From a phage: a stretch of 64,000 nt of DNA. The notes under the pieces were generated by a model, which worked only from the letters and a program-made list of their open reading frames with translations, did not search any database and had not been told where the DNA came from. Made by a program: the position numbers and the translations under genes. The DNA lies in the NCBI GenBank assembly GCA_012813795.1, contig GCA_012813795.1_4087.1; one strand, written 5' to 3'. This document shows positions 6,090 through 64,000 of this stretch, piece by piece; the first letter of the stretch is position 1, and each line of letters opens with the position of its first letter.

Positions 6090-6641
6090 TTATTTATCAT
6101 TAAGCTCTTTTAATTTAGTCTGAACATCTAGTGTTAATTTTCTTAGTTTCTTAAAGACAAAAGCACTGTCATCTAGTTCAAGTTTCATACCATGTGTAAT
6201 GGCATAAAGAACTTCAGCTTTAGCCAAATCATGACGCATCCAATTACCATTCTTATAGAGAGTCATTACACAAAAAGGGCAAACACTTTCAGATGTTTGA
6301 TGACCAATAAAAACGGATTGTATCGTATCATGTTGGAAATTAATAAATGACTCGTTAATTTTTTGAATTTCTGCAATTACATCAAGTTTAGCATCCGTAT
6401 TAATAGCAAAAATATTGTTCCCGTTGTCATCAGTATTGATGTTTAGCTCTATATCAGAACCTATTTTGCGTACTGCCATTGTATAAAGCAATAACTCATA
6501 CATGTCATATGACGTTACATCACCGCTTGGTGCAGTAACGTTAAGGTTAACACCGTGATGTGTAACTTCAGTACTGAATCCTTCTTTATCTGCTAGGAAA
6601 TTTACAATTTGGTTCGTGAATTTTTGAATTTGTTCGATCAT
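6090..6641 (-). CDS. hypothetical protein
   Basis: ORF track; AAAGGAG SD upstream. Confidence 0.55.
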   Translation of the reverse strand: MIEQIQKFTNQIVNFLADKEGFSTEVTHHGVNLNVTAPSGDVTSYDMYELLLYTMAVRKIGSDIELNINTDDNGNNIFAINTDAKLDVIAEIQKINESFINFQHDTIQSVFIGHQTSESVCPFCVMTLYKNGNWMRHDLAKAEVLYAITHGMKLELDDSAFVFKKLRKLTLDVQTKLKELNDK

Positions 6642-6682
6642 ATTAAGTACTCCTTTACTTTGTCTTATTTAACAAATGAATA

Positions 6683-6706
6683 TAAGGCTCCCGATTGAGA
6701 GCCTTA
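6683..6706. terminator. hairpin taaggctc-ccgattga-gagcctta, T-rich on both sides
   Basis: 8-bp stem; downstream of gene 6719..7156. Confidence 0.4.
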
Positions 6707-6718
6707 TTTCTTTTTATA

Positions 6719-17937: not shown

Positions 17938-17998
17938 GTTTTTTATTCCCTTAAAAACTTGAACATTTATATTATTTACTACTTTGAAAACAATGAAA

Positions 17999-18015
17999 GG
18001 GGAATCAAGTTCCCC
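17999..18015. terminator. hairpin ggggaa-tcaag-ttcccc flanked by T-runs
   Basis: 6-bp GC stem; T-rich on both strands. Confidence 0.4.
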
Positions 18016-18020
18016 TATTG

Positions 18021-19883: not shown

Positions 19884-19937
19884 ATTATATAACCAAATAA
19901 AAAGCCCAGAATATATATTCCGAGCTTACTTTTATAA

Positions 19938-20261
19938 TTAACGTCCAAATGTTTGTACTGAAGTACGTGGGTCTTCATCGGAAACCAAAGATACTGCGGC
20001 TGGGTAATCAACTAAGTTTAATTGAACACCATCAACCTCAATAGTTCTGGACCAGCGACCGTGGTCAATAAGAATCCATTGACCTTCTTTGATATCAGTT
20101 ATATCTTCACCAACTGAATAAACTTTAGCCCAACGACAACGAATACCACGAATTTTACCGTCATCATTTGTTAAAACAATTCCACCAGCAGTTTTTCGTT
20201 CGCCATGTTCTAAATCAGTAACCAGTACTTTTCCCTTACATGCTGTCATAACTTTAGACAT
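19938..20261 (-). CDS. GroES-like co-chaperonin (T4 gp31 functional analogue)
   Basis: KTAGGIVLT matches GroES KSAGGIVLT; overall GroES pattern; CAGGAG SD. Confidence 0.75.
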   Translation of the reverse strand: MSKVMTACKGKVLVTDLEHGERKTAGGIVLTNDDGKIRGIRCRWAKVYSVGEDITDIKEGQWILIDHGRWSRTIEVDGVQLNLVDYPAAVSLVSDEDPRTSVQTFGR

Positions 20262-20266
20262 TTGTA

Positions 20267-20629
20267 TTACTCCTGATCTTTAGTTTTTGCTCTGCGTGGT
20301 GCTTTCTTCTCTTCAGGTGAAACTGAAGGATCAACTGTTTCTTCGTTTTGTACAACGACATGCTCAACTTCAAAGCTTGCATCATCCCAACCATCATCAG
20401 AATAATCAGTGCTTTGTGCCTGATGTTCTGGAATATAGTCAGGAATTTGCATTTCACGTTCTTTCTCTTGAAGTAGTTCTTCACGAGTTTTAATTACAGT
20501 TCCACCAGAACCAATTTTATCACCACGAGCATTTAGTTTAGCATTACCCAATGCAACCTGATGTTGGTTCTGATATTTTAGCATATCCATATCAATGATA
20601 GTGCCACGATAAGTAGTATGTTTTGACAT
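20267..20629 (-). CDS. hypothetical protein
   Basis: AAGGGA SD; extended -10 upstream. Confidence 0.5.
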   Translation of the reverse strand: MSKHTTYRGTIIDMDMLKYQNQHQVALGNAKLNARGDKIGSGGTVIKTREELLQEKEREMQIPDYIPEHQAQSTDYSDDGWDDASFEVEHVVVQNEETVDPSVSPEEKKAPRRAKTKDQE

Positions 20630-20670: not shown

Positions 20671-20680
20671 ATTATATCAC
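20671..20680 (-). promoter_or_regulatory. extended -10 element TGaTATAAT
   Basis: Minus strand GTGATATAAT about 42 nt upstream of ATG at 20629; weak -35. Confidence 0.3.
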
Positions 20681-20688
20681 ATGTTTCG

Positions 20689-21231
20689 TTACCATTTCAG
20701 AAATTCGTTCACATCGAGATCATACTTCAATGAGTCAACCATATGCAAACCAATCAGAAACAGACAATATGAGGCTACAGAACTACCACGCCCTAAGCCC
20801 CAGAAGATGTTGTGCTCTTCCATATAATCTACCAACCATATCATACAACGCAATAGCTTTGTCATATTATATTGTTCGTATAAATCAATTTCGTATTCCA
20901 CACGCTGTTTTGCTTCAGGTGTGGAACACTTTTGTAAAAAGAATTCTCTTAGATTGATATTGTCATACATTGGATCATAACGCCATAACTCATGATTACT
21001 ATCATGGTCAATTGTATAATCCAACATACGTTGCTCTAGTCCAAATTTTTTACAGTTATCGTTAAACTTCAAACGCTCTTGTTCATCTATATCTTGTAAT
21101 TGTAAGTACTGAATATCTGAACCACAATTCATAGCATAAACTACAGCATTTAAATTACATTTAACATCACCATTGGGACTTATATATCTGTTTCCTTGAA
21201 CTTTCATTTGTCTTTTTACTATCCTCTTCAT
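20689..21231 (-). CDS. hypothetical protein with DnaE-like GxGRGS segment
   Basis: WGLGRGSSVASYCLFLIGLHMVD resembles Pol III alpha GPGRGSAAGSLVAY region; start uncertain. Confidence 0.4.
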   Translation of the reverse strand: MKRIVKRQMKVQGNRYISPNGDVKCNLNAVVYAMNCGSDIQYLQLQDIDEQERLKFNDNCKKFGLEQRMLDYTIDHDSNHELWRYDPMYDNINLREFFLQKCSTPEAKQRVEYEIDLYEQYNMTKLLRCMIWLVDYMEEHNIFWGLGRGSSVASYCLFLIGLHMVDSLKYDLDVNEFLKW

Positions 21232-21475
21232 CTGATAGATAAGAATTCATATCAAAAATACATGGATCAGCTTCCTCGTATGTATCTTTCTCTTTTCTAC
21301 CTTGTCGTAAAGTCATTTCTTCATAGCACTGATTCAGTACTATCTGCATGTTACCAATGATAGAATCACTCATACCAGCGGCACGAGCGGAACTAATACG
21401 TAAACTTTGATCATTAATCTTTTGTTGGAGTTCTTTATCACTCATACCAGAAGGGTCATAAAATGGATTAAACAT
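21167..21475 (-). CDS. hypothetical protein
   Basis: ORF track; overlaps next gene. Confidence 0.4.
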   Translation of the reverse strand: MFNPFYDPSGMSDKELQQKINDQSLRISSARAAGMSDSIIGNMQIVLNQCYEEMTLRQGRKEKDTYEEADPCIFDMNSYLSDEEDSKKTNESSRKQIYKSQW

Positions 21476-21487
21476 ATTTTTCTCCTA

Positions 21488-23875
21488 TTATATTATGTCA
21501 TTCTGTAAAGCAATTCTAAATGTATCATGTACATAACGTTCATGGTCCTGTGCAAAGTATCCAAATTCAACAGCAGTTACTTCGAATTCAGTACTAACCA
21601 TAGAACTATGCTCATTGTTTTGTAACAACATTTGGAAAAATGCTTCACCCTTACCAGGCAAACAGTATGCTACTGGAATGATAGGCATGAATTTCTTCTC
21701 AATACCATCTTCGATATATGGATGGTTCATGAAGCGTGGAACTGTGTCAATCATCTCATCACTTATGCCTGGTATAGCATCCACATATAGACCACGATTG
21801 ACTAAATCAGTTGGGTCTTTAACCAAGTTTGTTGTATCTTCACCAACAGCCTTATAGATGTTTTGGCGTAAACCAAACAACTCAGCAAGTAAACCATTAT
21901 CTACATTAGTGTAAATTCGAGGGTTGGTGGATACTACAACTTGTGTTCCTTCTGGATGAAGTTCTCTAAACACCAAATCATACAGAAGATTCCCTTTGTT
22001 GTCAAGTGCTGACATGATTTTATAATTACCAATAACCATCTTGAATTTACCATTGGGAATAGTAGCCCCTGATGGATCTATAATATTCTCACGGAGAACT
22101 TTTTTCAAATCACTTAAGTTGGTGTAATTATAGTTCTGATTTACAAAGTTTTCTTTCAATAGAATTCTAGGAACTTTCTGTAACCCATATCTATCATCAG
22201 ATTGACGATGGAATCCAAAATTAGCAAATGTTTGAGTACTGATGCATTTAAACCAATCACGCTCAAACTGTACCGATGGTACAATATGTGAACTCAAATG
22301 ATTTTGTCCCAACCCACGAACGATTTTTAATTTGAAATCACCAATAACACTACTACCCTCGGTGTCATACACTTCAACCTTGAAATTCAATTTTATATCA
22401 TCATTGGCACTAAAATCAGTACTTAATGCATATGCAGTTCCTACAAGATAACCGTCAGGGGTAAGGTCCAATCCATATTTAGTTATATCATCACCACCTG
22501 CCAATACACAAGATACTTGATTCTTACTATTAGTGAGTATTCGTGGGTATACCGTATGTCCGAAATATTCACCAACATGGATGGTTCCCAAGTCTGGATC
22601 GGTGATTATCTGTATAGATGAACCTTCTGCGGCGTTTTCCAAAAATCGGAACATACGTTTCTCACCAATAATACCACTACCTAAAGATACGTCATAATAA
22701 CCTAAATCATTCCAATCTGAACTTTTGAATAATGGTTTTATCATACCTTCATCATATTCACCACTAATAACATATGGATAAACAACGTTATCCCTTAACT
22801 GGTATAAATGGTTAGGTTTGGGTTTTTCATCAGTTGCAGCAATAGTAGATACATCATTTGGACATACCCACATTTGATATGCTTTGAAACGTTGGTCGAT
22901 TGCAAAACGTTCAGCGAGTGTAATGTATGTTTTAAGAATATCTACAATTTCAATCTTAAAGTAAACATCCGTTGGTTCGGATTCATGTAAGAATGTTTGT
23001 AAGAATTGCCCATTAGGGTTAAAGGAAAGACCACTTTTTGTTATCTTCCCAGTGTCATCAACTATGTTAACTTTAACTTCTTTATTAATTCCATCAACTG
23101 GAAATGCTAAATCATCAGGGCGTAGGTAAGCTGCTTTACCTGTAACGTGTCTTGTTGGTAAATCCTGTTCAGTTATATCCAGTAGGCGATACGCTGGAAA
23201 GAACACACGAGGACTAGTATCGGTCGCACTATCTACATTTGGCTGGTATGGACGTTTACGACCGAAGCCTTGAATGAACAAAGTACTGTCAGAACCATAT
23301 TCAATATCACCAATGCAATATAATCGATCGTCATCTGTGATAGTTAATCCAGGGGTTACCCATATTTCTTTACTATCAAAAGTTACTGTTGCTTTGTTTG
23401 CACGCAACAAACCAGATGGTGAAATGTTCCCAAAATGCATAACATTAACTGCCTGTAAATTGAAAACAACACTCTCAACGTTGTTAAATGTACCATCACG
23501 CTTACAATGCAACTTTAGATAATAAACATCTTCACTGATTATAGTACTTGGAAGATAAAAATTATTCTTTTGTATTCTACACTTATGTCTTCCATTTAAA
23601 AACTGGTTTCCAGTGGTTCCGTCCGATAGTGGGACTAAATTTCGTGGGTCATTACCAACAAATAATGAATAATGGTTTTCAGCGTTAAAAACATTACCAA
23701 CATTATCTAAACATTGTATAGTGAAAATCATCTCTAAGTATTCGTTTTCACTTAGTGTATAGCTATCACCTGTAGTTCCTTCTTTATTGATACTTAATCT
23801 AATAAGAATGTCAGATCCTTCTTGAATATATTGAGTATCAGCCTTTAAATCCCAATACGGGGTAAAAGATGCCAT
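21488..23875 (-). CDS. large hypothetical protein, probably late/structural
   Basis: 795 aa, beta-rich composition; TATAAATA late-type box and GGAGAAA SD upstream. Confidence 0.6.
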   Translation of the reverse strand: MASFTPYWDLKADTQYIQEGSDILIRLSINKEGTTGDSYTLSENEYLEMIFTIQCLDNVGNVFNAENHYSLFVGNDPRNLVPLSDGTTGNQFLNGRHKCRIQKNNFYLPSTIISEDVYYLKLHCKRDGTFNNVESVVFNLQAVNVMHFGNISPSGLLRANKATVTFDSKEIWVTPGLTITDDDRLYCIGDIEYGSDSTLFIQGFGRKRPYQPNVDSATDTSPRVFFPAYRLLDITEQDLPTRHVTGKAAYLRPDDLAFPVDGINKEVKVNIVDDTGKITKSGLSFNPNGQFLQTFLHESEPTDVYFKIEIVDILKTYITLAERFAIDQRFKAYQMWVCPNDVSTIAATDEKPKPNHLYQLRDNVVYPYVISGEYDEGMIKPLFKSSDWNDLGYYDVSLGSGIIGEKRMFRFLENAAEGSSIQIITDPDLGTIHVGEYFGHTVYPRILTNSKNQVSCVLAGGDDITKYGLDLTPDGYLVGTAYALSTDFSANDDIKLNFKVEVYDTEGSSVIGDFKLKIVRGLGQNHLSSHIVPSVQFERDWFKCISTQTFANFGFHRQSDDRYGLQKVPRILLKENFVNQNYNYTNLSDLKKVLRENIIDPSGATIPNGKFKMVIGNYKIMSALDNKGNLLYDLVFRELHPEGTQVVVSTNPRIYTNVDNGLLAELFGLRQNIYKAVGEDTTNLVKDPTDLVNRGLYVDAIPGISDEMIDTVPRFMNHPYIEDGIEKKFMPIIPVAYCLPGKGEAFFQMLLQNNEHSSMVSTEFEVTAVEFGYFAQDHERYVHDTFRIALQNDII

Positions 23876-23908
23876 TTTATTTCTCCATAGCTACTAATAT
23901 CTATAGAT

Positions 23909-23916
23909 TATTTATA
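23909..23916 (-). promoter_or_regulatory. T4 late-promoter-like TATAAATA box
   Basis: Minus strand TATAAATA about 35 nt upstream of ATG at 23875. Confidence 0.35.
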
Positions 23917-23927
23917 TAAAGGAGGAA

Positions 23928-23948
23928 GGAAGACCCATAGGGTCTTCC
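23928..23948 (-). terminator. hairpin ggaagaccc-ata-gggtcttcc plus U-rich tail
   Basis: 9-bp perfect stem downstream of the topoisomerase medium subunit gene. Confidence 0.5.
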
Positions 23949-23956
23949 ATTATATA

Positions 23957-25369
23957 TTAATCTTCAGACTTAGGTGTAAAGTCCATTTTTAGTAATTCTT
24001 GTAGTTCTTCTTTATAGATATTCCAGATTTTATCTTGGTTATTAAGTAAATCATTATAACTATCCATTAGATCTAGATTATCTTGAATGTCTTTCAGTAC
24101 TACATCGTAATTATCTTTCGTCCAGCGATAAGATGGGAAGTTTACAATACTCTGGATATTCTCAGATGTAGCTTCGATTTCAGTATTAAGCGAAGTTACA
24201 AATTCAACCATTTCAGCACGGTTTGCAAAGCCTTTTACTTTACCAATCATGTCATTATCAAAACACTCTTTGATGAGAATCTTATAACGAACTTCGGCTG
24301 CACAGTCTTCCAGTTTCTTCTCATATCGCTTCACATAGTATTTGAAACGGAAATTTACGAAATCTTTAATCAGGTCAAGTGTACTGTCATATACACGAAC
24401 TTTACCATTTTCACCAAGAACAGTTAACAATTGAGTCATTTTCTTATTCAATCCAAAATACTCAATTACATCAGCTTCGGTCCATTTTTGAGAAATTCCG
24501 CGTGGTAGTTTGATCGTGATATCAATAACATCAGTACTATCATTATCGTAATCACGAATATCACCATCATCACTCATCTTGATTAGTTTTTCGATAAACT
24601 TTTCAATACTATAATTGGGTGGAAGACCTGTCACTTTAACAGTACTTGCGTCAATTACCTGTGCTTTACCATAAAATTCATATTTGTTTTCGTCTAGTTT
24701 AGTTACTATATCACTAGCACCAACCGATGCATAATATGGTGTCATTTCTTTAAGGGGTTTCCCTTCAATTGCACGAATACAGTTCTTTATTACATCCTCA
24801 ATCTTATGTGGAAGAATTGTACTCTTATACCCTACTGACATACTATCATTACCAAACAATGCTAATGGGATGATAGGTAGGAAGTGTACTGGTTCCATTG
24901 TAGTACCATCATAGTTCTCTTTCATTGGAATTATATCCATATCACGTAGAACTAATGCTTCAGTCGTTTTTGTCTTTTTGACGTAGGTATAACGAGCAGA
25001 TGCCGGAGTACTGTTAACTTGTGTCCCGAAACCACCACGCTTACCAATCAGTGGGTAGTTGTTAGCAACTGGACTAGCTAGGTTTTGTAATGTTCCTGAT
25101 GCAGATGTGTCACCATGAACGTAAATCCCATCACTGATCATACGACCTGCACATGAAACAGTTTTAATCTCCCCACTGATTTTGGATAATGTGAAGATTG
25201 CTTTACGTTGAGAACTCTTGAGTCCGTCAATCCCTGGGATAGCACGGTCAAGTGTGTACATTGAGTATTCTAATGATGTAGTATTGACATAATCTGAACT
25301 TTTATAATCAAGTAAAGTTAGAGTTAATTCATCAACATTTGTATTAGTGTTTTTCTTACTTTTAGCCAT
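23957..25369 (-). CDS. 52: DNA topoisomerase II medium subunit (T4 gp52-like, GyrA-type)
   Basis: YSMYTLDRAIPGIDGLKSSQRKAIF matches the GyrA-family N-terminal motif. Confidence 0.8.
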   Translation of the reverse strand: MAKSKKNTNTNVDELTLTLLDYKSSDYVNTTSLEYSMYTLDRAIPGIDGLKSSQRKAIFTLSKISGEIKTVSCAGRMISDGIYVHGDTSASGTLQNLASPVANNYPLIGKRGGFGTQVNSTPASARYTYVKKTKTTEALVLRDMDIIPMKENYDGTTMEPVHFLPIIPLALFGNDSMSVGYKSTILPHKIEDVIKNCIRAIEGKPLKEMTPYYASVGASDIVTKLDENKYEFYGKAQVIDASTVKVTGLPPNYSIEKFIEKLIKMSDDGDIRDYDNDSTDVIDITIKLPRGISQKWTEADVIEYFGLNKKMTQLLTVLGENGKVRVYDSTLDLIKDFVNFRFKYYVKRYEKKLEDCAAEVRYKILIKECFDNDMIGKVKGFANRAEMVEFVTSLNTEIEATSENIQSIVNFPSYRWTKDNYDVVLKDIQDNLDLMDSYNDLLNNQDKIWNIYKEELQELLKMDFTPKSED

Positions 25370-25417
25370 TCCATTGTCTCTTTGTTAAGCGGGGAACACC
25401 ATGTCCCCCTTATTACA

Positions 25418-27382
25418 TTATTCCATCCAGTTTTTACGATCATCAGCACGTTTCTTGTTGAAAATCAAATCTAATGTTTCACCAAGACGACCGTCATCAG
25501 TAATTGCTACTGCAACACTATTCGTAAATGCATCGCGGAAGTTACTTTTTTCGAGTGTTCCTAAACCTTTCGCACGAGTTGCTTTCCACCCTTTCCAATC
25601 TTCAGGAATATATTCATGGACGTTATGACCATAAAAATACTTAGATTCCTTACCTTTCTCCAAGATAATAAATGGAGTTTTGAATACGTATACAAACGGA
25701 TTATCAGGATCTTGGAATAATTCGGGCCAGAATTTGTACAAGAAGTTACAAACTAGTGCACCAATGTTCTTACCATCCTCATCTTCGTCCGCACAGATAT
25801 ATAGCTTACCGTAATTCAAATCAGCACGGTCAGCTTTAACTCCAGGGACCAAGTTGATGCTTGCCATTATATCATGCAATGCCATAGAATCCATTAATTC
25901 TTTGGTTTTCTCATTCCCACTAACGTTCATAATCTTACCACGCAATGGGAGGATACCATGAATACTAGGAATACGAGCACTTGCCATGTTGGAAATAGCA
26001 GAGTCACCTTCCGCAACCAATAGAATACATTGTGAACGGTCAGTTCCAGTACTATCAAGTAGTTTTGCAACTTTACCTTTCAAAAGTTTCTTGGCAAGGC
26101 GACGGTCTTCTTCTGCGTCTTTCTTATTAGTACGGGCAGCACAACGTTCAAAAATCTCATCAACCCATTCTTTATTTTTCTTGACCAATTCATCAAACCA
26201 GTCAGTACTCATAGCTTGCTGAATAGGACGAATTACATTTTCATTAGTCAACTTAGATTTAATCTGTGAGTTGAATGATGGTGCTTTCATTGTAGTTACA
26301 TTGTAAATCAACAAACCTTCTTCAATATCAGAACGGTTTGGTTTCATCTTACGCTTCTTCGCTTCTTTCTCTAATGCAGTTCCTACCCCTAAAGAGAAGA
26401 ATTTCTTGAAGGTATCTAGATGTGTACCACCATCAAATGCTGGAGCATTATTCACAAGACCATGCATATGGAAGTTTGTGTTCATACCAGATACAGCATT
26501 AGGTACAATATAAAACGTACTATTGAAATTGAATGATTCATCTTTAACATTCAATGACATTAGTTTTGAAGCATTAAAGAGTGCCTTTTCTGTGCTTCCT
26601 TTAATTGCAATACGTTTACCATTCAAGAAGATTTTGTATGTTGGGTTCGCTGCTGCCATTTCTTTTAGAATACTATAAAGTAATTCAGTTGGTAGCTTGC
26701 GATTAGGAAATACTTCTTTACTTAGGGTAAAGCGAATAGTTGTACCAGTTTTATCGGATTGTACTTTTCGAATAGTTGGTTCATGTACATGAAGTTCAGG
26801 GAACATAATTGTACCTTCTTCAAACTTCTGTGTATATTTGTACATACCATCATAACCGTCATTACTGGATTGCGTTTTATATGGACGTCCGGTTCGGTGA
26901 ATTTCAAGTTCTGCTTTAGAGCTAACAATCATAGCCACAGAACCACCTAGACCGTTTTGACCGATTGTTTCATCACGCTTAGAATCATCAAAGTTACGAC
27001 CAGTTTTAGTTTCAGTCATTACCATCGTACAGAGGTTTTTCTCATACTCTGGGACATAATCAATCGGAATACCACGACCATTATCACTGATTTCGAAGGA
27101 AAGGTCTTCTTCATTGAAATCAACTTTCAGTACTGGTTCTTTCGTACCAGCTTTTTTGAATTCATCAAGACTGTTATCAATAATTTCACGAGTTGCAGTA
27201 AGAATTGCAGGAACCCATTCCATATTTTTTACAGCATAATCATTTTCACCAAAAATCAGTACTTGACTTTCGTGAATAGAACGAGAACCAAGATACATCT
27301 CAGTACGTAGACGAGCATGTTGATAATCGTTTAGACGTTGAACGTCATGTTCTTGTAGAACAGCACTTTCTTTCTTAGCCAT
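25418..27382 (-). CDS. 39: DNA topoisomerase II large subunit (T4 gp39/gp60-like, GyrB-type)
   Basis: GHKL ATPase motifs IIDNSLDE and DNGRGIP, TOPRIM LLVAEGDSA; AAGGA SD. Confidence 0.85.
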   Translation of the reverse strand: MAKKESAVLQEHDVQRLNDYQHARLRTEMYLGSRSIHESQVLIFGENDYAVKNMEWVPAILTATREIIDNSLDEFKKAGTKEPVLKVDFNEEDLSFEISDNGRGIPIDYVPEYEKNLCTMVMTETKTGRNFDDSKRDETIGQNGLGGSVAMIVSSKAELEIHRTGRPYKTQSSNDGYDGMYKYTQKFEEGTIMFPELHVHEPTIRKVQSDKTGTTIRFTLSKEVFPNRKLPTELLYSILKEMAAANPTYKIFLNGKRIAIKGSTEKALFNASKLMSLNVKDESFNFNSTFYIVPNAVSGMNTNFHMHGLVNNAPAFDGGTHLDTFKKFFSLGVGTALEKEAKKRKMKPNRSDIEEGLLIYNVTTMKAPSFNSQIKSKLTNENVIRPIQQAMSTDWFDELVKKNKEWVDEIFERCAARTNKKDAEEDRRLAKKLLKGKVAKLLDSTGTDRSQCILLVAEGDSAISNMASARIPSIHGILPLRGKIMNVSGNEKTKELMDSMALHDIMASINLVPGVKADRADLNYGKLYICADEDEDGKNIGALVCNFLYKFWPELFQDPDNPFVYVFKTPFIILEKGKESKYFYGHNVHEYIPEDWKGWKATRAKGLGTLEKSNFRDAFTNSVAVAITDDGRLGETLDLIFNKKRADDRKNWME

Positions 27383-29661: not shown

Positions 29662-32906
<3,245 letters not shown>

Positions 32907-32954
32907 GTAATAAAAGCTCCAAATAGTTTGTAATAGGTGTTGGTTACAGTAAAG

Positions 32955-32983
32955 ATTGTATAACAATAATTGATTTCTGTCAA
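32955..32983 (-). promoter_or_regulatory. sigma70-like promoter TTGACA-N17-TACAAT upstream of IF3 homologue
   Basis: Minus strand -35 at 32978-32983, -10 at 32955-32960. Confidence 0.45.
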
Positions 32984-33174
32984 GCTCCATTATTGTATTT
33001 TTTCAATGCATCACAAATAGCTTGTACTTGAATAAGATAAGTTTTTGCAAACTCAGCTTGTGTACGAACACGTGGGTTTGGTGCATTTTTAATCATAATG
33101 TCAAGGTCATATACAACTTTGTCGAATACACCTTTGTCATCAATGATACGATCATAGAATGATTTGTCTTCCAT
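32980..33174 (-). CDS. small hypothetical protein
   Basis: GGAG SD 8 nt upstream of ATG. Confidence 0.45.
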   Translation of the reverse strand: MEDKSFYDRIIDDKGVFDKVVYDLDIMIKNAPNPRVRTQAEFAKTYLIQVQAICDALKKYNNGA

Positions 33175-33765: not shown

Positions 33766-33809
33766 TGTATATTTTCTCCATTATACAAAGCACTTTTGAT
33801 TATTTATTG

Positions 33810-43132: not shown

Positions 43133-43196
43133 TTATCATCCTTGTTACTCATTATTTCAGTTCAATATTTAGTACTGCAAAATTATGGGGAAGAAA

Positions 43197-43213
43197 AAGG
43201 CGGGACGCCTTTT
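43197..43213. terminator. hairpin aaggcg-gga-cgcctt flanked by A/T runs
   Basis: Downstream of gene 43212..43793. Confidence 0.4.
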
Positions 43214-43793
43214 AAGGTTTGTCCCACCCACGGTATACAAATTCTAAAGTATATCCTGATTCTGCAAAATCATTATTACGAACTGTGAAACTCATATTTT
43301 TAGTTTGTTCATCGTAACTTGGATTTTCGAATGTAATCGATATAATAGCATCTGGTCTGTTGGTATTGTTAAATTGGGTTAGTAGAGTGTTTCCACCAAT
43401 CGTTACAATTTGAATAGTTCCTGATTCAAGAATTGTATTACTGGTGTTGTAAGCAATGTAATCAACGAATACACGACTTTGACTTTGAATATAAATGTCA
43501 TACATCTCTACATCTTTAAGTAAATCATAAACGAATGGTCGATTTATAATTTTAGAAACAGTTTGCCACGGGGTAAATTCTGTGATGATTTCCACGTTTT
43601 CTTTACCAGAATTAGGGTCAGTTTCCCATGTTCTACCCGCTACAATACTAGCTGGGTCAGATGAAGAAGGTAAACCAACAAACATACGACCTACATCAGT
43701 ACTGAATGCTAATTGACCCTTTTCTAATGCATCTGGTAAATCACGCTGTTTGCCAGTTCTAATTTGCTGCAACGCAATCTGTTGTTGTGCCAT
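43212..43793 (-). CDS. hypothetical protein
   Basis: ORF track. Confidence 0.55.
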   Translation of the reverse strand: MAQQQIALQQIRTGKQRDLPDALEKGQLAFSTDVGRMFVGLPSSSDPASIVAGRTWETDPNSGKENVEIITEFTPWQTVSKIINRPFVYDLLKDVEMYDIYIQSQSRVFVDYIAYNTSNTILESGTIQIVTIGGNTLLTQFNNTNRPDAIISITFENPSYDEQTKNMSFTVRNNDFAESGYTLEFVYRGWDKP

Positions 43794-48003: not shown

Positions 48004-48056
48004 ATATTCTCCAAAATAAAAAAGACCTTAGTCTTGCTTTATGATATTTATCACAA

Positions 48057-57873: not shown

Positions 57874-58692
57874 TTAGTTAGTACGACTACTATACTCGTA
57901 CTCAAATGTATATACTAAATCTTTATCACAGTTTGGATTACTCGTGTCTAGGATATCACTATTAGTAATCATCCATTCAATGTAATTCAATGGTACAGTA
58001 CTCATTGGTTCGCCTTTATGCTTACCAAATGGCATAAATTGATAACACATTGGTGTATTGCAGAATGTGACAATTTGTTCACCAATATCCTGTTCTGGAT
58101 CAATATGACCACGTTCAATAGCAACTTCAATAAGTTTAATTAGAACCTGATAGCACATGAATACATCATCTTTTGCAGCATGAGCATTAACAGGACGATG
58201 TACATCACGATAACATCCAAATTTATACCACAAATAACTTAGTGTTAGATTTTTGAATTCTACATCTTCAGCAAACATTTTCTTAGCAAAACGAAGGGTA
58301 CAAATCCATTTATCCTCATCAAGAAGATACTGTGAAATTGAGTTACGATATTTATATTCATTATCAACCATCATTCTACGGTCAAATTGTACATTGTGAC
58401 CAACATAATATTCTCTGCACCCCATTAGTGCATCAATATTTTCGAGATCATCTTTATACCCAATACAATTTGCAACATCTTCAGTACTGATAAAATGCAC
58501 TGCCGACGCTTCAGGTGGAATGTCTTTCAATGGTTTATATCGCAATGTATAGTTATCAACTGTGTCAATATTTTCATGTGCATTTTGAGGATAAGAAATA
58601 CTAAATTCAATAATATCATCATCACTCTCAACACCAGTGGTTTCAGTGTCGAGTACTGAAACTTGTTTTAGAAAATCATCTATTTTAGACAT
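57874..58692 (-). CDS. DnaQ-like DEDDh 3'-5' exonuclease
   Basis: Exo I LDTETTG, Exo II HNVQFD, Exo III HAAKDDV. Confidence 0.7.
   Translation of the reverse strand: MSKIDDFLKQVSVLDTETTGVESDDDIIEFSISYPQNAHENIDTVDNYTLRYKPLKDIPPEASAVHFISTEDVANCIGYKDDLENIDALMGCREYYVGHNVQFDRRMMVDNEYKYRNSISQYLLDEDKWICTLRFAKKMFAEDVEFKNLTLSYLWYKFGCYRDVHRPVNAHAAKDDVFMCYQVLIKLIEVAIERGHIDPEQDIGEQIVTFCNTPMCYQFMPFGKHKGEPMSTVPLNYIEWMITNSDILDTSNPNCDKDLVYTFEYEYSSRTN

Positions 58693-60394: not shown

Positions 60395-64000
<3,606 letters not shown>

Follow-up and report, generated by a model that had tools for sequence, protein, structure and literature searches.

A conserved gene beside the topoisomerase II genes of RaK2-like jumbo phages: a candidate late, low-copy virion protein with Ig-like modules and a predicted, degenerate 2H-fold domain

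The stretch of phage DNA analysed here (contig GCA_012813795.1_4087.1 of the GenBank assembly GCA_012813795.1; 64,000 nucleotides (nt), hereafter the window) carries, next to topoisomerase II genes, a 795-amino-acid (aa) open reading frame (ORF) whose product raises a simple question: what is a protein of 89.9 kDa (isoelectric point 5.0) doing in a replication-gene neighbourhood, and at what stage of infection is it made? The ORF begins with ATG and occupies positions 21488..23875 of the minus strand, as given by an initial annotation made from the sequence alone. By sequence comparison, the window derives from a RaK2-like jumbo myophage, and the closest match is Escherichia phage A4 (Asteriusvirus; 355 kb), which has the same gene order around the ORF and shares 89.6% nt identity with the span 21488–23956. 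With moderate confidence, we propose that virions of RaK2/121Q-type jumbo myophages contain the product of this gene as a conserved component, made late and present in few copies. Within this proposal, the late timing in the window phage, the surface exposure, the copy number and the anchoring through the C-terminal end are features that we infer.

Comparison with phage protein families shows that the description "unknown protein" in the initial annotation no longer holds. Over its full length, the product belongs to phrog_13911 ("virion structural protein"; E value 0, with residues 1–793 aligned to profile positions 1–785 of 789), and the family carries that name in many deposited genomes. 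It is the orthologue of RaK2 gp160, 121Q gp54, phAPEC6 gp158c, CBB_326 and A4_83, with aa identities of 97% (A4), 67% (phAPEC6 and 121Q), 52% (RaK2) and 44% (CBB). Among the phages listed, the identity is 65–70% to other coliphages of the group (121Q, PBECO4 and phAPEC6 among them), 52% to the Klebsiella phages RaK2 and K64-1, and 44–50% to most Erwinia, Serratia, Salmonella, Yersinia, Cronobacter and Pectobacterium phages. Homologues were found in 73 phage records. In 72 of these the match spans 80% or more of the query, and every one of the 72 is a RaK2-like jumbo phage; the remaining, partial match comes from a Vibrio jumbo phage. A large protein database yielded 86 homologues, nearly all of about 790 aa, and an exhaustive profile search returned 56 cluster representatives, the remote ones of which align only at residues ~390–780. 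All the phrog_13911 members named above are collinear over their full length, share the neighbourhood and have a hairpin and motif upstream; no substantive difference from them was seen, and the window gene is one more allele. The record OQ708376.1 (vB_EcoM_CRJP21; match H73) names the orthologue "5'-nucleotidase", an enzymatic name to which the family searches give no support.

The order topoisomerase II, 795-aa gene, ORF of ~100 aa, DnaE fragment, GroES-like gene and clamp loader is the same in A4, CBB, phAPEC6, 121Q, RaK2 and Serratia phage BF. Metagenomic relatives (E values of ~1e-6 to 1e-8) keep the linkage to the DnaE fragment, one with topoisomerase II upstream and two with the GroES-like gene and the clamp loader downstream. 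Judged by its homologues and their synteny, the gene belongs to the ancient core of a broad clade of jumbo phages. The ratio of nonsynonymous to synonymous substitutions (dN/dS) relative to A4 is 0.02 in every domain, and the gene is therefore under strong purifying selection. In an alignment of 51 homologues, identity to the query is lowest in the N-terminal third, at 36%, and highest in the C-terminal 375 residues, at 56%. The orthologues of the Eneladusvirus group are longer, ~1010–1025 aa, owing to an insertion of ~215 residues after about residue 259 of the window protein (Serratia phage BF, L007 2001–5030; Erwinia pEa_SNUABM_12, L013 501–3530; proteins P0040 and P0081), and this insertion has no Pfam match.

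Evidence for the nature of the product comes from orthologues detected in virions by mass spectrometry (MS). RaK2 gp160 (87.7 kDa) is in the virion list of that phage with 6 peptides and 8.1% coverage (PMC3622015 Table S3), and gp158c is represented in the structural proteome of phAPEC6 by 9 peptides that cover 17.1% of it (PMC7247149). In the same phAPEC6 data set, coverage is 21% for the portal, 24% for the baseplate wedge and 13–16% for the tail fibres, compared with 75% for the major capsid protein and 68% for the sheath (PMC7247149). Because the coverage of gp158c is near that of the portal, wedge and fibres and far below that of the major capsid protein and the sheath, the analogy suggests that the family is present in the virion at low copy number. 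Other reports are silent: gp160 is unmentioned in the RaK2 adsorption-complex paper (PMC10253068), and nothing on this gene was found in the phiKp24 structure paper, the JP4, Sharanji and fEgEco12 genome papers, the PA5oct omics paper, the phiKZ Tn-seq preprint or the Asteriusvirus cryo-EM literature.

The timing of expression is addressed by the region upstream of the gene. Late promoters of T4, with the core TATAAATA, need no -35 element and depend on gp55, gp33 and gp45. An exact copy of this octamer is present at 23909..23916 (-), where 22 nt separate its 3' end from the sequence GGAGAAA and 33 nt separate it from the ATG; transcription would start a few nt downstream of it, at about 23900. 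The octamer is depleted rather than over-represented in the window, with two sites against 9.8 ± 2.9 expected, which fits selection against stray late promoters. The second copy, at 58349–58356 (-), lies inside a DnaQ/PolIII-epsilon-like ORF (57874..58692) and not before a start codon. Placement of the motif before starts is non-random: 8 of 10 coding-strand TAAATAA sites in the window, and 5 of 8 ATAAATA sites, lie 20–60 nt upstream of a start, and these are the highest fractions of all 128 7-mers composed only of A and T (median 7.7%). In A4, most of the genes that follow these sites carry the annotation "structural protein" (A4_31, 44, 50, 53, 57, 71, 75–77, 83 and 90).

The motif is also conserved across the family. 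The octamer before the orthologues of A4, 121Q and phAPEC6 is identical, and ATAAATA occurs 31–40 nt (motif start to ATG) before those of CBB, Serratia phage BF and two remote metagenomic relatives, while the RaK2 orthologue has GTAAATA in place of ATAAATA. In CBB, ATAAATA was reported at 35 sites before structural genes, together with a gp55-like sigma factor, and homologues of gp33 and gp45 were not detected (PMC5259590). A4_588 is annotated "sigma factor for late transcription", and a counterpart would lie outside the window. The element thus resembles a T4 late promoter in that it has the exact octamer, precedes a gene annotated as structural in A4 and belongs to a clade whose relatives encode a gp55-like sigma factor. 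It differs in that the conserved core of the clade is shorter, [A/C/T]TAAATA(A), and in the gp33 and gp45 homologues not detected in CBB. No transcript mapping for RaK2-like phages carrying this gene was found in the literature.

Between the topoisomerase II medium-subunit gene and the motif, a GC-rich hairpin with a 9-bp stem and a 3-nt loop is located at 23928..23948 (-), 8 nt past the topoisomerase stop codon. Its arms (23940–23948 and 23928–23936) form the perfect stem GGAAGACCC-UAU-GGGUCUUCC, with 6 of 9 pairs GC, and the RNA of positions 23905–23965 folds with -19.3 kcal/mol (z = -4.6 compared to shuffled sequences). On the minus strand the hairpin is followed by UUCCUCCUUUA, running into TATAAATA. 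The initial annotation had recognised the T4-type late core, a GGAGAAA Shine-Dalgarno sequence and a "strong terminator hairpin" ending the topoisomerase gene. The first is backed by the conservation, positional enrichment, CBB motif and A4_588 described above, and the Shine-Dalgarno sequence is present at 23880..23886 (-), its GGAG ending 7 nt before the ATG and conserved in the aligned orthologous upstream regions. For the terminator, the hairpin is present as stated, but the run after its stem, UUCCUCCUUUAU, is pyrimidine-rich and not a clean U-tract; because of this, a simple terminator scanner that asks for a T-run called the site on the plus strand only. Hairpins with other stem sequences stand at the same place in CBB, RaK2 and Serratia phage BF and are followed by cleaner T-runs. 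Since hairpins with different stems precede the motif in these phages, what is conserved appears to be a cassette of terminator plus late promoter, not the bases of the stem. The hairpin is probably an intrinsic terminator that insulates a late gene from early and middle transcription arriving from upstream.

The predicted architecture of the protein is consistent with a virion component. An AlphaFold2 model built on the 51 homologues has a mean predicted local distance difference test score (pLDDT) of 86.7; residues 1–520 are nearly all beta strand, arranged in about four beta-sandwich units, while residues 523–795 are alpha/beta. Residues 1–418 (22622..23875, -) comprise three all-beta regions of immunoglobulin (Ig)-like or beta-sandwich type and are the least conserved part of the protein. 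Residues 419–522 (22310..22621, -) form a further Ig-like domain of the He_PIG (cadherin/dystroglycan-like) type. Remote homologues score PF05345 over this region and two family members have weak He_PIG matches; the window protein itself has no Pfam match. One syntenic remote orthologue carries a CBM_5_12 carbohydrate-binding module in its N-terminal half, and a weak tail-fibre PHROG match was obtained for one remote orthologue. Ig-like modules of phages are usually found on the particle surface, where they bind weakly to cell-surface carbohydrate, and are typical of exposed and not of internal proteins. The N-terminal Ig-like modules are probably exposed here as well. The initial suggestion of a beta-rich structural or host-interaction protein is supported by the model and by the MS detection of orthologues. 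When the full-length model was compared with the PDB by Foldseek, only generic cadherin/Ig arrays were retrieved (template modelling (TM) score of about 0.1–0.15), and no solved structure in the PDB contains a homologue. Neither the single protein nor the profiles of the 51 sequences and of the C-terminal domain found a meaningful match in Pfam, NCBIfam or the PDB; a marginal PDB match to a CARD8 domain (E value 0.76) was dismissed as chance. A local profile search revealed no paralogue of the whole protein or of its C-terminal domain within the window.

The C-terminal domain (residues 523–795; 21491..22309, -) is conserved more widely in the family than any other module and has the predicted fold of the 2H phosphoesterases (LigT/Usb1/AKAP18-like). 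With the members of this superfamily, which include LigT, Usb1, the central domain of AKAP18, CPDase, ASCC1, phage Acb1 and the C-terminal domain of rotavirus VP3, it shares a bilobed alpha/beta fold in the prediction. Unlike the enzymes, it lacks both His-x-Ser/Thr motifs, comprises ~270 instead of ~180 residues, and follows Ig-like domains within one polypeptide, orthologues of which are detected in virions. The strands that match the motif strands by order of secondary structure, and not by superposition, are 571–577 and 732–738; the sequences read there are P-R-I-L-L-K-E-N-F and I-I-P-V-A-Y, and across the 51 homologues neither strand holds a conserved His. Elsewhere in the domain, His is well conserved only at H718 and H756, both lost in remote family members; H718 has no Ser or Thr at +2, while H756-x-[ST] is found in only 55% of the sequences and lies in a loop. 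The C-terminal-domain profile matched no PDB sequence, NCBIfam gave no match, and none of the 51 members matched the Pfam families LigT_PEase, 2_5_RNA_ligase2, CPDase, AKAP7_NLS and HVSL at E ≤ 10. Given the absent motif pair and the loss of H718 and H756 in remote members, the modelled domain is read as a 2H-fold pseudoenzyme, catalytically degenerate. Conservation is instead concentrated in the family-wide motifs ER.W[FY], YR..D..[YF]G, P.Φ.ΦK.N, GN.[KR]...A.D..G...Y[DE]ΦΦY, LP.WM and ΦΦAY..PG, and the invariant polar residues are K574, E575, N576, N617, K619, D625, D633, R637 and E638.

A working model can be drawn from these elements. The hairpin at 23928–23948 would stop, at least in part, early and middle transcription coming from the topoisomerase genes. 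Late in infection, the host RNA polymerase with a phage gp55-like sigma factor would start at TATAAATA, and the late transcript would cover the 795-aa gene and probably the small downstream genes too. The ~520 N-terminal residues would form a string of Ig-like beta-sandwich domains, and the C-terminal module, i.e., the He_PIG domain with the degenerate 2H domain, would dock the protein on a conserved part of the virion or bind a conserved ligand. In T4 Hoc, the N-terminal Ig-like domains project outward and the C-terminal domain binds the particle. The protein described here is like Hoc by architecture only, with an Ig-like N-terminal part that is less conserved than the C-terminal part. It has no sequence or fold match to Hoc, is twice its size and, going by the MS coverage of its orthologues, may be present in few copies and not at one per hexamer. 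RaK2-like phages bear many "hairs", tail decorations and fibres (PMC7247149 figure legends; PMC5259590), and the product is a candidate for one of these.

Several observations weigh against a virion role as proposed. The virion evidence comes from orthologues and not from the window phage, and the gene lies in a replication-gene neighbourhood, outside the main structural cluster. CBB_326 is absent from the table of 55 CBB virion proteins identified by MS (PMC5259590), and in the Eneladusvirus MS supplement the locus tag of the orthologue was found, in the supplementary files searched, only in the annotation tables. The phAPEC6 list (PMC7247149 Table 1) includes RecA, SSB, the thymidylate synthase ThyA, PhoH and the neighbouring topoisomerase II subunit, listed as the small subunit. 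Such lists may reflect either contaminants or the real packaging of DNA-handling proteins, and, because they hold replication proteins, presence in them is inconclusive by itself and co-purification is possible. The imperfect tract behind the hairpin and the gp33 and gp45 homologues undetected in CBB count on the same side. Finally, no solved phage virion protein resembling the C-terminal domain was found, and for this reason its anchoring role is a guess.

Some of these observations would be explained if the product were a late intracellular protein, such as an accessory factor that assists assembly, scaffolding or DNA processing, and were carried along when particles are purified. The absence of CBB_326 from the CBB table, the clear non-structural proteins in the MS lists, the neighbouring topoisomerase subunit among them, and the location among replication genes, with a GroES-like "head morphogenesis" gene downstream and perhaps in the same late unit, all point in this direction. 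We consider this rather unlikely, since independent MS analyses of two phages from separate genera each recovered the protein (6 and 9 peptides), cytoplasmic factors do not usually have a multi-Ig architecture, and the gene has a dedicated late promoter like those of genes annotated as structural in A4.

Somewhat less probable again is a role as an internal or ejected protein of the virion. It would be carried into the cell from inside the head or along with the DNA, and its 2H domain would there bind, without cleaving it, a nucleotide, an RNA end or a signal made of cyclic oligonucleotides. The 2H fold is common to proteins that handle nucleotides or RNA, such as phage Acb1 and the virion-borne phosphodiesterase domain of rotavirus VP3, the domain contains many invariant polar residues (the set from K574 to E638), and the linkage to replication genes extends across a deep clade. 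phAPEC6, moreover, has an inner body and virions that carry DNA-handling proteins (PMC7247149). However, the conserved His-x-Ser/Thr pair is absent, no nucleotide-binding family shows similarity in sequence, Ig-like beta-sandwich of the kind expected in exposed proteins makes up two thirds of the protein, and a remote orthologue has a carbohydrate-binding module.

A receptor-binding tail fibre or spike that sets the host range was likewise considered and rejected as improbable. It would accommodate the Ig-like and adhesin-like domains, the weak tail-fibre PHROG match and CBM_5_12 module in one remote orthologue, and the many fibres and "hairs" of the group. Against it stand the dN/dS of 0.02, with no variable tip, and the full-length collinear orthologues at 44–70% identity in phages of Escherichia, Klebsiella, Erwinia, Yersinia, Pectobacterium and Xanthomonas. 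In addition, the conserved end is the C-terminus, the reverse of typical fibres, and the adsorption-complex study of RaK2 leaves gp160 out.

More speculative still, the degenerate 2H domain might be a non-hydrolytic binder of nucleotides or cyclic oligonucleotides, borne in the particle and delivered with the genome, that acts at the very start of infection as a "sponge" or sensor to counter host immunity based on nucleotides; if so, the linkage to replication genes would reflect an intracellular role. An active 2H phosphoesterase, i.e., an Acb1- or LigT-like hydrolase of cyclic nucleotides or 2',3'-cyclic phosphates, has in its favour the "5'-nucleotidase" label of one record, and we regard it as very improbable and reject it because the His-x-Ser/Thr motifs are absent: none of the 51 homologues has a conserved His in the predicted motif strands, H718 and H756 are not conserved in remote members, and no Pfam 2H family is matched even at E ≤ 10. 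Least credible of all is a functional counterpart of T4 rIIA, which the initial annotation had been reminded of by length and by position next to the topoisomerase genes while seeing no rIIA-like motifs, and which is effectively refuted by a domain content of an all-beta Ig array plus a 2H-like domain, without an rIIA PHROG or Pfam match (phrog_13911 being the sole PHROG match) or a GHKL ATPase domain, and by the late promoter and the virion-detected orthologues.

For the late, low-copy virion protein that we favour, part of the picture was already known: the family is supported by MS, and late promoters of this type had been proposed earlier for the clade. What is added is the predicted 2H fold of the C-terminal domain with its catalytic motifs apparently lost, the modelled He_PIG/Ig architecture, the depth of the synteny and the quantitative support for the cassette of terminator and late promoter. 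Current understanding is not overturned, and a specialist would not be surprised. In terms of annotation, the 90-kDa "hypothetical/structural protein" found in all RaK2/121Q-type jumbo phages, a group with several members being studied for phage therapy, gains a putative late promoter, Ig-like modules and a candidate 2H-fold pseudoenzyme end. The AlphaFold2 model can be used for docking into the fibre, "hair" and decoration densities of the particles, and the C-terminal domain may show an RNA-repair fold put to new use, in structure or in binding.

Cassettes of a hairpin plus TAAATA(A) would also provide a simple rule for spotting late genes scattered in the replication regions of 350-kb genomes. 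In the window, a hairpin with [A/C/T]TAAATA(A), or bare TAAATA(A), recurs on the minus strand ~24–42 nt before a Shine-Dalgarno sequence and ATG, mostly before genes annotated "structural protein" in A4. The motif, with or without a hairpin, is found at 17972–18016, 43166–43215, 6665–6710, 33801–33807, 48045–48051 and 62967–62973. The site at 43166–43172 precedes the gene for the large subunit of ribonucleotide reductase, and that at 6666–6672 precedes the ORF 6090..6641. Late genes form small islands scattered through the replication region.

The upstream neighbour, ORF 23957..25369 (-), encodes the topoisomerase II medium subunit (PF00521, E value 4e-63; phrog_551), and the next ORF further upstream the large subunit of a T4-type topoisomerase II (phrog_543). 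The enzyme of the window (23957–27382) is split into subunits of 654 and 470 aa, and a remote metagenomic relative (L008, 4147–7554) has a single fused protein of 1135 aa. In RaK2 (L006, 1–1505), a homing endonuclease gene is located directly upstream of the medium-subunit gene.

On the downstream side, an ORF of 102 aa without assigned function (21167..21475, -; phrog_15348) has its own Shine-Dalgarno sequence and an ATG 12 nt past the stop codon of the 795-aa ORF; it is annotated in 121Q, CBB, RaK2 and phAPEC6. A terminator scan found none between the two ORFs, which are probably co-transcribed. The first strong coding-strand terminator downstream of the 795-aa gene in that scan, with an 11-bp stem and a T-run, is at 19902..19927 (-). 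From the sequence, it is possible that the late unit ends there and takes in the DnaE-fragment ORF (20689..21231), an ORF of 120 aa (20267..20629) and the GroES-like gene (19938..20261). The DnaE-fragment ORF (-) overlaps the 102-aa ORF and matches only positions 16–95 of the 260-position PF07733. This stand-alone fragment of 172–180 aa is kept beside the 795-aa gene in all the relatives examined, very remote metagenomic ones included, and its conservation is odd, there being no obvious polymerase context. A sigma-70-like site at 20671–20700 (-), consisting of CTGAAA, 18 nt and TATAAT with an extended TG, precedes the 120-aa ORF and the GroES-like gene, and its -35 element resembles the TGAAACG "divergent RpoD-like" promoters of CBB and GAP32. 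According to the A4 annotation, homologues of IF3 and ClpS lie side by side at 31843–32990 (-), and both are also present in the remote metagenomic relative with the fused topoisomerase.

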